Sequence record: OZ335958.1
Strand: one strand, 5' to 3'
Source of the DNA: a phage
Length of the DNA: 64,000 bases
Position numbers and translations under genes: made by a program. Below are positions 36,876 to 48,682 of the stretch, one piece after another (position 1 is the first letter of the stretch; the number at the start of each line of letters is the position of its first letter). Below the pieces are notes generated by a model that was not told the DNA's origin, did no database searches, and saw nothing but the letters and a program-made list of their open reading frames with translations.

Positions 36876-37337
36876 TCATTGAGTTTTAATTACTGCTTTA
36901 GAAGCCTTTCCTGGTAAACGACGACTGTTGATAATTGCCATCCTGCATTGAAGCGACGGGTCTTTGAACTTCGCATTAGGTTTACAAACTGTAAATCCAA
37001 GCCAAAGATTTCCATCTGTGATTTCTAAACGTCCAGGACGGTATTCAACCCCATCAATAAAATCCTCATCAATGTCAGGACGCGGAGGCATACTCAGGAA
37101 TTCATTAACTTCTAAAACATGGTCTTTTATTTTGTGGAATAATTCAAAAACATATGTCTCATCAATCTCCCGTTGAATTGCACGATCAAGAAGATGCTGA
37201 GAATATTTTAGATGAAACGATGAGACCCCTGCTGCTTTTGATGCCTCACGAATCTCATTGTTAATTTGACGAAACTCCGACTCAAAGTGACGACGAAGCT
37301 TATTTCGACGGATAAAAACTTCTGTGTTGATAGTCAT
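36876..37337 (-). CDS. regB: site-specific endoribonuclease RegB
   Basis: 153-aa ORF recognised as T4 RegB by length, position and sequence. Confidence 0.8.
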   Translation of the reverse strand: MTINTEVFIRRNKLRRHFESEFRQINNEIREASKAAGVSSFHLKYSQHLLDRAIQREIDETYVFELFHKIKDHVLEVNEFLSMPPRPDIDEDFIDGVEYRPGRLEITDGNLWLGFTVCKPNAKFKDPSLQCRMAIINSRRLPGKASKAVIKTQ

Positions 37338-37977: not shown

Positions 37978-38155
37978 CTAAACGAATAGGTTCATGAATG
38001 CCATATCCCTGAACAGAAATTTCTGTCGTAGGATAAATTCCACTAATATCACCCATATTCCACGCTTCATTAAATTGCTGTTCGCCTGAATTACTAAACC
38101 ATTCTGCGAAAGCATTTAACACATCTTTAGAACCTTCAATAATTATCTTTGCCAT
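37934..38155 (-). CDS. hypothetical protein
   Basis: 73-aa ORF. Confidence 0.4.
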   Translation of the reverse strand: MAKIIIEGSKDVLNAFAEWFSNSGEQQFNEAWNMGDISGIYPTTEISVQGYGIHEPIRLVEYDLGTGEEVKYD

Positions 38156-38517
38156 TACAAGCTCTCAGTAAAGGTACGAGCGATAACGTCGCGCTGCTGT
38201 TCCGGAGTCAGAGAGTTAAAGCGAACTGCATAACCGGATACACGGATGGTCAGCTGCGGATATTTTTCCGGATGCTTAACTGCATCTTCCAGAGTTTCAC
38301 GACGCAGAACGTTAACGTTCAGGTGTTGACCACCCTCAATTTTAACTGTAGGTTGTGTTTCAATTTCAATTTCACGGGCATGCAAACCATAGAAAATTTC
38401 TGGGTCTACAAAAGAGTCCTCTTTAAAGGTTTTAGAGACAATAATTCGTGCTTGAATACCATCTTCAAAATAAATAGTACCTCTATGTGTGCCTTCAAGA
38501 ATTTGATATGCTTTCAT
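38155..38517 (-). CDS. autonomous glycyl-radical cofactor-like protein (GrcA/YfiD-like)
   Basis: 120 aa; C-terminus [29 protein letters not shown] matches the glycyl-radical motif; 3 prime half has higher GC than surroundings. Confidence 0.6.
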
Positions 38518-38523
38518 ATAACC

Positions 38524-38904
38524 TCAATTAGAAAATAAATTTATCCAAGATTGTTCTTTAATTAAAAATGGCTCAGAATCATATGCCATTAAACTTTGTG
38601 TGATTAGTCCTTTAAAAGGCCCATCAATAAATTCCATAGTAAAATATGGAATTTTATTCATTAGTCGTGCATTAGGAGCAGTGCACAAAACTCTGCATCC
38701 TTTGAATACGCCTTTTTGTAATTTGTACTGCTTAGGATAAAATTCGCTCAAGACGTTATTATTTGCCAAAATTTCAAAATGATTCACCAACTTATTTTTA
38801 ATAGTTTTTGGTGAAAAATAAAGATATTCGAAAAGCTGTGTGTCTGTCATCATTGCATTCCAATCACAAAAAATTGAGGACGAGTAATACCGCCAATGCA
38901 GCAT
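38524..38904 (-). CDS. hypothetical protein
   Basis: 126-aa ORF. Confidence 0.4.
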   Translation of the reverse strand: MLHWRYYSSSIFCDWNAMMTDTQLFEYLYFSPKTIKNKLVNHFEILANNNVLSEFYPKQYKLQKGVFKGCRVLCTAPNARLMNKIPYFTMEFIDGPFKGLITQSLMAYDSEPFLIKEQSWINLFSN

Positions 38905-39437
38905 TTACTGTTGCAGCAGTGTTGCACAGTTTCAATATGAATATCATAAATTTTATCCATATCAGGAGATTTAACAGGCTCATCGATTATATACAAGATT
39001 CGAGAAAGCGATAAACCTCTGAACTTGCTACCTCTATTACCAATAAAACTACGGACAGAATCGGTAAATAAGCGGAATCGGATATCATCGCTAGAATAAC
39101 GAGAAAATTCTTTTTTAATGTGGCCTGCAGAAATTTTAGCGTAAGCTGAAGTGTTAGAAAGAACAATAACTGTTCCACCATCATACAGCCAATTAGCAGC
39201 AAAATTAGTCACAGCAGTTGATTTACCGGATTGACGTCCACCATCTAGTCGAAGTGTACAATACTGTTTGAGCAAGTCTTCAAATGGTAGGATATAATCG
39301 TTTTTACAAATTTCTTCTACTCTAGCATCAGAATGGTGTGTAAAAGCATTCATCAGGGATAGATAAGGACCAGTTAAAAATGTTCTCATTTTATTCTCTC
39401 TAAATTTGGGCCATTCCATGGCGCGTGAATTGTCCAT
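38850..39437 (-). CDS. P-loop NTPase-like protein
   Basis: Walker A-like GGRQSGKST; start uncertain (55-nt overlap with downstream ORF). Confidence 0.4.
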   Translation of the reverse strand: MDNSRAMEWPKFRENKMRTFLTGPYLSLMNAFTHHSDARVEEICKNDYILPFEDLLKQYCTLRLDGGRQSGKSTAVTNFAANWLYDGGTVIVLSNTSAYAKISAGHIKKEFSRYSSDDIRFRLFTDSVRSFIGNRGSKFRGLSLSRILYIIDEPVKSPDMDKIYDIHIETVQHCCNSKCCIGGITRPQFFVIGMQ

Positions 39438-39542
39438 TTCTGTATTTACCCATTACCGCACTTGGGCTCGACCTTATTACAGGTTGGCGGGAATCCCTCA
39501 TAGAATCATGAAGTCCAGCTTGTTCCCATATTTCTTATTTGC

Positions 39543-40016
39543 TTATTTGAATGATTTGACGTACTGAATAGAGCCTTTGCTATTCACGAAAGCGATTTTA
39601 CCATTTTTGTTATACATGGTAGCAGTACGCTGATAGCCATAAGTTTGCTTACCAGATTGATAACCAACTAGTGCGAAATTATCTTCACCCATTTTATTCT
39701 GCTTAGCGCGGATACGTTCATGACCGTGCGCCATAAGAACCTTAGCATCACCAGTTGCAATGGATCTACGAGTTTTTTCATCTTCAACTGTATTAACAAA
39801 GTCGTCAAATGAATCAAATTTAGCATGAGATTTATTATACAGTTTTCCATCTACTGCATAATTATATCCCTGTACATCCATCTCAACTTCTGTACCATCA
39901 TCTAATACAGCAGTGATTTTTTGACCTTTTTTAAATTTCAAAAGATCAGTAAAAGATTCAGCAATAATTTGAGAATTAATAGCTGCTTCAGTGATAAATT
40001 CTTGATATGTTTTCAT
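39543..40016 (-). CDS. internal-protein-like capsid-targeted protein
   Basis: 157 aa; N-terminus MKTYQEFITEA matches the T4 internal protein capsid targeting sequence; body unlike IPI/II/III. Confidence 0.55.
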   Translation of the reverse strand: MKTYQEFITEAAINSQIIAESFTDLLKFKKGQKITAVLDDGTEVEMDVQGYNYAVDGKLYNKSHAKFDSFDDFVNTVEDEKTRRSIATGDAKVLMAHGHERIRAKQNKMGEDNFALVGYQSGKQTYGYQRTATMYNKNGKIAFVNSKGSIQYVKSFK

Positions 40017-40025
40017 GTGTTTCCT

Positions 40026-40442
40026 TTAAATGTAAATATTTTTGCCGTAGTATTTATACCAGTGTGGCTTCATTAAAATTTTTTCATCGAGTCGTTGTTG
40101 ACTCAATTTAATAGCCGATTTGCATTGGTTATAATCATTTTTCCATTCTGCTGGAATATCGCTGATGTCAGGAACTTCAGTATCTTTTATACTAAACCCA
40201 CGTTTTAAGCATTCCGCTATAATGTCTGATTGACGCTTTCGCAAAAATTCTAACTTATCATAAAAGAACGTAACATGACCAGAACCTAAAATAAACTCGG
40301 AAGATATTTTAAAATCTTTAACCCGCTTACCATTTGCCACATGTTTACGAACTATACCAAAAACACGTGGCAATTCACGGTATTCTGCGATTAAATGTTG
40401 ATCAGCAAGTTCAGATACTAAAGTCAAATTAATACGAGTCAT
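40026..40442 (-). CDS. denV: endonuclease V (pyrimidine dimer DNA glycosylase)
   Basis: 138-aa [31 protein letters not shown] recognised as T4 DenV. Confidence 0.85.
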
Positions 40443-40450
40443 TTTATCCC

Positions 40451-40496
40451 TCCTAGAATTGTGAATATACTATCACAATTCTAGGAGAAAGTAAAC
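40451..40496 (-). promoter_or_regulatory. early-type promoter embedded in a 14-bp perfect inverted repeat that includes the denV Shine-Dalgarno
   Basis: Arms TCCTAGAATTGTGA (40451..40464) and TCACAATTCTAGGA (40473..40486) flank the -10 region; GTTTAC at 40496..40491. Confidence 0.5.
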
Positions 40497-40500
40497 AACT

Positions 40501-41031
<531 letters not shown>

Positions 41032-41487
41032 TTAAAAGAGGCTGTTCATTATTCGGTAAAGTGAAGGACCCATCACATATTGCCACTGAGTACGAGGAAT
41101 AAGAGCAAAAGCATCCATCTCTGGAATCATAACGCCATCTTTATTTTCAAAATAAGACTCGCAATGGCAATTTCTAAACATCTCATGCTCTACTGGAATC
41201 GTATAATAAAATAACTGTAAGTCTTTATTACTAGAATATTTAAATACACCTAAGTCTTCTAGAAGGTCTGGATTATAATCGATAAAACCAGTCTCTTCTG
41301 AGCATTCTCTTTTTGCAGCTTCCAGTGCATTCAAATCAGAACTTTCTACACGCCCCTTTGGAATATCCCAGCGATGTGCCATCATTCCAGGTTTACGAGA
41401 ACCGGTAACTCGTCCCATAAATAAATCTTTATCTTCTGTCATAAAGATAATACCAGCTGATAATGTTTTCATTTTAATTTCCTGCAT
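41032..41487 (-). CDS. nudE: Nudix hydrolase
   Basis: 151 aa; Nudix box GRVESSDLNALEAAKRECSEETG. Confidence 0.8.
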   Translation of the reverse strand: MQEIKMKTLSAGIIFMTEDKDLFMGRVTGSRKPGMMAHRWDIPKGRVESSDLNALEAAKRECSEETGFIDYNPDLLEDLGVFKYSSNKDLQLFYYTIPVEHEMFRNCHCESYFENKDGVMIPEMDAFALIPRTQWQYVMGPSLYRIMNSLF

Positions 41488-48111: not shown

Positions 48112-48345
48112 TTATTTTTTACGAAAAATTGATTTATTTTCTGCTGCCCATTTTTCAATAACTGCAGCAGGACCAGTAACAACAATTTTATCACCGTAAT
48201 CTTCTGCGGCGAGTTGACCGAAATTATCTAATGCATCACGAAGAACTCCATGAGGCATTTCACCCATTTTATCTTTCTTGCCGGTGTAAATAAACTCAAC
48301 TTTTACATCAGAAGATTCAGCGATAAATTCTTGATAAGTTTTCAT
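48112..48345 (-). CDS. internal-protein-like small protein (IPI position)
   Basis: ATG at 48345 gives MKTYQEFIAESSDV... (77 aa), exact capsid-targeting N-terminus; body unlike T4 IPI as recalled. Confidence 0.55.
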   Translation of the reverse strand: MKTYQEFIAESSDVKVEFIYTGKKDKMGEMPHGVLRDALDNFGQLAAEDYGDKIVVTGPAAVIEKWAAENKSIFRKK

Positions 48346-48424: not shown

Positions 48425-48682
48425 TTATTTTAAATCTTCTAATCGTTTCTTCATCTTAGAACCATTTTTAGCAATTTCTCCTGCATCGGAGCATAATGCT
48501 AAAAGTGCTTTAACTTTCGTTTGGTCTCCTTTAAAAGATGAAGGATCTACTGCAGCAGCAAGTTCTTTAATACGAGAGAAAAGACGCTCAGCTTCAGCTA
48601 AAGCCATTCCAAGCTTTACTTCCATACCGTGGGAAGATTCAGTGATAGTAGTTTTTGCAGCAAACTCTTTGAAAGTTTTCAT
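48425..48682 (-). CDS. internal-protein-like small protein
   Basis: 85 aa, N-terminus MKTFKEFAAKTTITES (targeting-sequence-like), helical Ala/Lys-rich body. Confidence 0.45.
   Translation of the reverse strand: MKTFKEFAAKTTITESSHGMEVKLGMALAEAERLFSRIKELAAAVDPSSFKGDQTKVKALLALCSDAGEIAKNGSKMKKRLEDLK

Follow-up and report, generated by a model that had tools for sequence, protein, structure and literature searches.

The window analysed here is a 64,000-nucleotide stretch of phage DNA (OZ335958.1) that belongs to a Tequatrovirus, since an 8-kb comparison with phages BW-1 and PYps32T gives 98.3% identity and complete Tequatrovirus genomes match it at 96–98%. On its minus strand, positions 39543–40016 (stop codon included) hold an ATG-initiated open reading frame of 157 amino acids whose translation begins MKTYQEFITEAAINSQ, confirming the internal-protein-type gene that an earlier note had described there. 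In the sense of transcription, this gene is preceded by nudE (41032–41487), the lysozyme gene e (40501–40995) and denV (40026–40442), and is followed by vs.8, then vs.7 and then the GrcA-like vs.6. The features of the gene and its immediate flanks, listed in the direction of transcription with ↓ marking a cleavage point, are:

40437–40500, unstranded: e–denV intergenic inverted repeat with core CTCCTAGAATTGTGA / TCACAATTCTAGGAG and an 8-nt loop, from an inverted-repeat search and homology to the T4 ipIII–ipII spacer
40026–40442, minus strand: denV (endonuclease V), the upstream neighbour of ip4; Pfam Pyr_excise, 78% nucleotide identity to T4 denV over the first 294 nt
40017–40043, minus strand: 5′ flank of the internal-protein (IP) cassette with its ribosome-binding site (RBS; AAAATATTTACATTTAAAGGAAACAC), overlapping the denV stop and near-identical to the sequence upstream of T4 ipII
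39543–40016, minus strand: ip4 (IpIV), T-even internal head protein precursor; open reading frame, Pfam DUF7412, PHROG 3155, 100% identical to the T2/RB18/RB33 protein
39987–40016, minus strand: codons 1–10, MKTYQEFITE, capsid targeting sequence (CTS), from 10/11 identity to the T4 IPII/IPIII leader
39957–39986, minus strand: codons 11–20, AAINSQIIAE, variable linker with a second gp21-type site, I18-A19-E20↓S21, from the family alignment
39546–39956, minus strand: codons 21–157, predicted mature Ip4* body with an orphan alpha/beta fold; 137 amino acids, 15.5 kDa, pI 9.3

The earlier note had called the gene novel, a claim that did not survive database comparison. The open reading frame is the already named internal protein Ip4; databases and literature already covered the gene and its locus, the class to which it belongs and the proposed anti-defence role. 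A tblastn search recovered Ip4 from 471 phage records; in 291 of these identity is ≥99%, and the protein is 100% identical in T2, RB18, RB33, teqskov and HY03. The BASEL phages Bas43 and Bas44 also carry ip4. The exact sequence is found on 459 public contigs and carries the UniRef name ‘IpIV internal head protein’ of T2; the RB51 record (99.4% identity) names the gene Ip4 with the remark ‘similar to T2, RB70 Ip4’, and UniProt Q38388, ‘Ip4 [Enterobacteria phage K3]’, represented in BFVD, is 99% identical. Profile searches agreed, with Pfam DUF7412 (PF24183) scoring 319 bits against a cut-off of 27 (E 5.7e-96; residues 1–157 on profile positions 1–158) and PHROG 3155, ‘internal virion protein’, scoring 339 bits (E 6e-102). 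The window protein is thus the same as Ip4/IpIV of T2, K3, RB51 and RB70 (Q38388, A0A2Z5WKT6), with no substantive difference. A passage of Silas et al. (2025) credits Repoila et al. (1994) with at least ten further leader-recognised Ips in relatives of T4. The earlier note adds no new entity, and the question of what Ip4 targets predates it. Added here are a second invariant protease-type site at residues 18–20, a predicted basic orphan fold without conserved catalytic residues, and a lysozyme-like degree of conservation.

Recognition of the N terminus as the CTS of T4 internal proteins was borne out at both the protein and the DNA level. MKTYQEFITEA of Ip4 matches MKTYQEFIAEA of T4 IPII and IPIII (translated from NC_000866) at 10 of 11 residues, and the sole mismatch, residue 9, is the free X of the prohead-protease (gp21) motif L/I-X-E (PMC9026906); T4 IPI begins MKTFKEFTSTTTPVSTITEA. 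A first gp21-type site, I8-T9-E10↓A11, closes the Ip4 CTS. Experiments on IPIII have shown that residues 4 and 7 matter for targeting and residues 8 and 10 for processing, and that its first 10 residues, which gp21 removes, alone suffice to package foreign proteins (PMC9026906). Ip4 is identical to IPIII at all four of these positions. Over positions 40043–39985 (59 nt, comprising 27 nt upstream and 32 nt of coding sequence), DNA identity reaches 93% with T4 ipII (pairwise E 2.6e-20) and 91% with T4 ipIII; the RBS is the very one that both T4 genes use, and the same 5′ flank precedes Ip4 in fPS-90 and RB51. This identity across the RBS and leader shows that the leader match is not due to chance, and conservation with ipII/ipIII at the DNA level marks ip4 as the same type of mobile cassette.

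In the family alignment, M1, K2, F7 and E10 are invariant; residues 11–25 are variable with the exception of an invariant E20, and the body is well conserved from residue 26 onward. An [ILM]-x-E↓[AST] site occurs after residue 10 in 12 of 12 aligned members and again after residues 19–21, and residues 11–20 between the two sites have low pLDDT (53). In T4 IPI the cut at T-I-T-E↓A follows E19, a counterpart of the second Ip4 site after E20; S21 is probably the first residue of mature Ip4, in a similar way to IPI*, which begins after E19. Metagenomic relatives at 34–37% identity have different leaders that nonetheless keep the motif (MNFEQFLNE↓S, MNFKDFLNE↓S...LNE↓S and ...SLNE↓S). Retention of a leader and an [ILM]-x-E site at this distance suggests selection for targeting and processing and is not expected of a vestigial leader.

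We compared the locus with that of T4, in whose reference record ipII and ipIII lie between denV and e, as the earlier note had stated. The T4 order is e–ipIII–ipII–denV–vs.8, whereas the window reads e–denV–ip4–vs.8 with a gap of 58 bp between e and denV; both this gap and the placement of ip4 downstream of denV had been given correctly. In pairwise alignment, nudE and e are collinear with T4 at 94% identity, and homology resumes 12 bases past the ip4 stop, exactly at the denV/vs.8 junction of T4, indicating a single e-to-vs.8 hotspot with differently arranged cassettes. The description of the position as non-canonical therefore holds in one respect, since ip4 lies on the opposite side of denV from T4 ipII/ipIII, but not in another: lying between denV and vs.8, ip4 is inside the interval that holds ipII and ipIII in T4, and the order e–denV–Ip4–vs.8 recurs in RB51 and fPS-90, whose ip4 neighbours are those of the window. 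T-even phages have two polymorphic Ip loci, the e–vs.8 region and the ipI locus next to 57B (PMC12373910).

Related phages fill the interval in other ways. In T2, Salmonella phage Melville and Klebsiella phage KEN37, ip4 directly follows e. T2 (PV648364.1, 4419–5474) has e and then ip4 with no denV gene there, which explains the direct junction in that phage, and the sequence upstream of its ip4 is the flank that T4 has at ipIII. Classically, T2 is more UV-sensitive than T4, which fits the missing denV in its record. Melville and KEN37 carry another IP gene after ip4, in KEN37 a clear IPIII orthologue, and Bas37 has e–denV–vs.8 without any IP gene. Short homologies have been proposed to drive modular shuffling in the hyperplastic regions of T4-type phages (PMC2839356), and the leader/RBS segments of ip4 and the stem-loop spacers are homologies of this kind. 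The e–denV spacer resembles the promoter/stem-loop boundaries between cassettes that have been proposed to mediate such shuffling, and in the annotation of fPS-90 it contains a predicted early promoter. Gene 21, encoding the gp21 protease, falls outside the 64-kb window by T4 synteny (window position 37097 corresponds to T4 62500).

Two more leader-bearing genes lie at the ipI locus of the window, Ip6 (48112–48345, minus strand; 77 amino acids, PHROG 8111) and Ip5 (48425–48682, minus strand; 85 amino acids, PHROG 3499, with the IPI-like leader MKTFKEF). A tblastn search of the window found no body of IPI, IPII or IPIII. In Bas37, the 234-nt gene Bas37_0260 sits directly downstream of a 258-nt ‘ipI’ gene; lengths and order match Ip6/Ip5, so that Ip6 of the window is probably the orthologue of Bas37_0260.

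Two conserved TATAAATA late-promoter boxes, present in T4 as well, precede e and face the same way as that gene, and a search for terminators gave no site of that type between denV and vs.8. The simplest reading, we infer, is that ip4 is probably co-transcribed with e and denV. A further exact match to the T4 late-promoter consensus TATAAATA, at 40051–40058 (minus strand), 35 nt before the ip4 ATG, was rejected as a conserved feature. Motifs of the TATAAATA type occur in the window at chance level (12 observed versus 10.7 expected); at this place RB51 and fPS-90 read TATAAGTA, and the T2 flank differs. The box sits in the 3′ end of denV, where synonymous codon choices (W-Y-K-Y) produce it, and this origin, together with its absence from RB51, fPS-90 and T2, makes it probably fortuitous.

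The body of Ip4 is unlike that of any T4 internal protein, in agreement with the earlier note. Compared with mature IPI, IPII and IPIII it gave no significant similarity (blastp E ≥ 2.3, with tblastn matches driven by the leader), and neither sequence nor fold comparison revealed a likeness to Ip1, Ip2 or Ip3. Structure prediction, which the earlier note had proposed, and a fold search returned an orphan alpha/beta fold with no enzyme-like structural neighbour. In charge, Ip4 resembles its namesakes: its predicted mature form of about 15.5–16.5 kDa has a pI of 9.1–9.3 and 17 lysines, comparably basic to mature T4 IPI*, IPII* and IPIII* (pI 9.0–9.7). IPI* has 76 residues, and lysines of the T4 internal proteins contact DNA phosphates (PMC3012670).

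Conservation within the body offers a view of its likely mode of action. Residues kept out to distant homologues are G31, V48, G50, K58, N61, K62, S63, A65, L94, N107, K108, A115, Q120, G122, G127, Y128, T131 and K157. An enzymatic reading was considered and rejected: H64, H99, E111 and D112 are invariant in close relatives but are not kept in homologues at 34–37% identity, and the loss of all of them at that distance speaks for a protein that binds and not for one that catalyses. From one genus to another (Tequatrovirus, Gelderlandvirus and Jiaodavirus), identity is 68–71% for Ip4, 65–67% for lysozyme e and 55% for NudE. With identity as high as that of e, ip4 evolves like a stable inherited gene and not like a hypervariable one. 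This lysozyme-like conservation, unlike the fast, strain-specific arms-race pattern of Ip1–3, could reflect a role that is conserved or structural. The family is a small one, forming 14 clusters at 90% identity, and a search of 1.84 billion representatives gave 7 hits; its phages infect Escherichia, Shigella, Salmonella, Klebsiella, Serratia, Erwinia, Proteus, Citrobacter and Yersinia, at 61–71% identity.

Some Klebsiella phage records, such as vB_Kpn_AM_K5 and vB_Kpn_AM_K6, hold disrupted or chimeric ip4 copies. One encodes a 184-amino-acid product with an unrelated C terminus, and a 261-kb record matches only the first 66 residues. These defective copies may be assembly errors or true gene decay.

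The relatives of assigned function share a single theme. T4 Ip1, Ip2 and Ip3 inhibit one GmrSD type IV enzyme apiece, all three different, without cross-protection (Silas et al. 2025, PMC12373910), and Bas37_0260, which also bears a CTS, inhibits McrBC (HIDEN-SEQ, bioRxiv 10.1101/2025.11.20.689424). All four function-assigned CTS proteins are therefore inhibitors of type IV restriction systems. With T4 IPII/IPIII, inhibitors of GmrSD-ECOR21/-ECOR17, Ip4 has in common the CTS, an L/I-x-E↓A/S site, the RBS–leader DNA cassette, the hotspot and a basic mature protein, but the bodies are unrelated, and Ip4 lies beyond denV and has a second cleavage-type site. T4 IPI/IPI*, which inhibits the GmrSD of E. 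coli CT596, provides the precedent of a small basic protein that is packaged, processed and injected. Bas37_0260 resembles Ip4 as a non-T4 internal protein recognised by its leader, one that blocks type IV restriction; it differs in being a 77-amino-acid protein encoded at the ipI locus, in a phage without ip4. The HIDEN-SEQ Bas37 library consequently yields no fitness value for Ip4. Leaderless IPIII acts in the cytoplasm, and its expression in the host rescues the host-specific plating defect of the deletion.

The one published test that includes a gene called ip4 gave a negative result. Silas et al. (2025, PMC12373910) screened ip4–10 against active GmrSD systems and observed no new inhibitory interaction; the assay covered the only 8 of many GmrSD subtypes that were active, and their ip4 construct is equated with Ip4 by name only. 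In the same study, T2, whose Ip4 is identical, was restricted by GmrSD-ECOR21 and GmrSD-ECOR17, so these two are not Ip4 targets. The earlier note had put the gene forward as a candidate for a new anti-defence effector. Anti-defence is indeed the leading hypothesis, but the idea had already been published, and the GmrSD test of ip4–10 came out negative.

Taken together, we favour with moderate confidence a five-step explanation in which ip4 encodes a T-even internal protein that is packaged, trimmed and injected and that inhibits modification-dependent defence. Its first four steps draw on sequence and T4 precedent, and the fifth on analogy with Ip1, Ip2, Ip3 and Bas37_0260. Transcripts that come in by way of e and denV would yield the Ip4 precursor, which its 10-residue N-terminal CTS would direct to the prohead's scaffolding core. 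There, gp21 would cut at I-T-E10↓A and probably also at I-A-E20↓S, which would leave a basic mature protein of about 15.5–16.5 kDa inside the head. Mature Ip4 would then be ejected into the cell along with the DNA, where it may act as a stoichiometric binding inhibitor, not an enzyme, of a first-line host defence that depends on DNA modification. By the same analogy, the most likely target would be a type IV restriction enzyme that the published GmrSD panel either lacked or contained in inactive form. The DNA of Tevenvirinae host phages is of the hydroxymethylcytosine type, so that type IV enzymes are the obvious threat shared by all of them. This explanation is favoured by the location of ip4 in an IP hotspot, of which there are two, and by its neighbours in other genera, which include further IP genes; against it stand the negative GmrSD screen of ip4–10 and the continued restriction of T2 by the ECOR21 and ECOR17 GmrSD systems.

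Three other readings draw on parts of the same evidence. It is unlikely, in our estimate, that Ip4 is an injected inhibitor of a non-type-IV defence or of a host function broadly shared among Enterobacterales. A family spanning phages of nine enterobacterial genera at 61–71% identity, the lack of arms-race-like divergence and a GmrSD panel without a match would all suit such a target, but nothing positive points to any particular one, the four characterised CTS proteins all act on type IV restriction, and hydroxymethylcytosine-type DNA exposes every host phage to type IV enzymes. We regard as distinctly unlikely a mainly physical role, in which Ip4 would be packaged and processed as a lysine-rich, DNA-associated head component serving charge neutralisation, DNA packing or ejection. 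The basic mature protein (17 lysines, pI 9.3), the presence of K58, K62, K108 and K157 among the residues kept in distant homologues, a level of conservation that equals the core lysozyme's among Tequatrovirus, Gelderlandvirus and Jiaodavirus, the negative screen of ip4–10 and the contacts of T4 internal-protein lysines with DNA phosphates (PMC3012670) are all compatible with this role. Natural absence of ip4 from T4 and Bas37, however, means that heads can function without it; the T4 internal proteins once given such a role each proved to be specific restriction inhibitors (PMC12373910); and the modelled Ip4 body is folded, well conserved and globular, not a low-complexity polycation.

That the leader is a recombination relic, and Ip4 an ordinary cytoplasmic accessory protein that is never packaged, strikes us as highly improbable. 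Our search for virion proteomics showing Ip4 packaged or cleaved found none in the searchable literature, including the fPS-90 and fD1 papers, and the late-promoter match at 40051–40058 is specific to the window and absent from RB51, fPS-90 and T2, both of which would fit a relic. Yet homologues at 34–37% identity with different leader sequences still keep F-L-N-E↓S, the first 10 residues of IPIII package foreign proteins (PMC9026906), and e is preceded by two conserved late promoters that point the same way.

Ip4 is most likely, to judge from its sequence, a packaged and injected binder or inhibitor of host defence. More tentatively, it is possible that it inhibits a defence outside the tested GmrSD set, type IV or non-restriction but Enterobacterales-wide, and that its orphan fold, stable across at least five T-even genera, is a broad-spectrum counterpart of the strain-specific Ip1–3. 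Internal proteins enter the cell with the DNA, ahead of any phage gene expression, and Ip4, with 471 of the phage records searched and T2 among them, is one of the most widespread. Finding its target would fill a real gap and bears on the choice of therapeutic T-even phages.

Downstream of ip4, a GC-richer stretch at 39440–39530 was considered as a tRNA or RNA remnant and rejected: ARAGORN found nothing there, and the stretch is the 5′ part of a T4-type vs.8 (94% identity). In the window, vs.8 (38850–39501, minus strand) is frameshifted relative to the 219-amino-acid T4 protein, T4 residues 1–32 corresponding to a small open reading frame at 39400–39501 and residues 26–219 to one in another frame at 38850–39437. 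RB51 and fPS-90 annotate just a shorter vs.8 of about 180 amino acids. The vs.8 protein contains a P-loop (GGRQSGKS), and its terminase-like/AAA matches are weak. Farther along, vs.6 (38155–38517, minus strand) encodes a 120-amino-acid protein in which a glycyl-radical domain stands alone (Pfam Gly_radical, E 2e-18), and the T4 and fPS-90 records label it autonomous glycyl radical cofactor GrcA.
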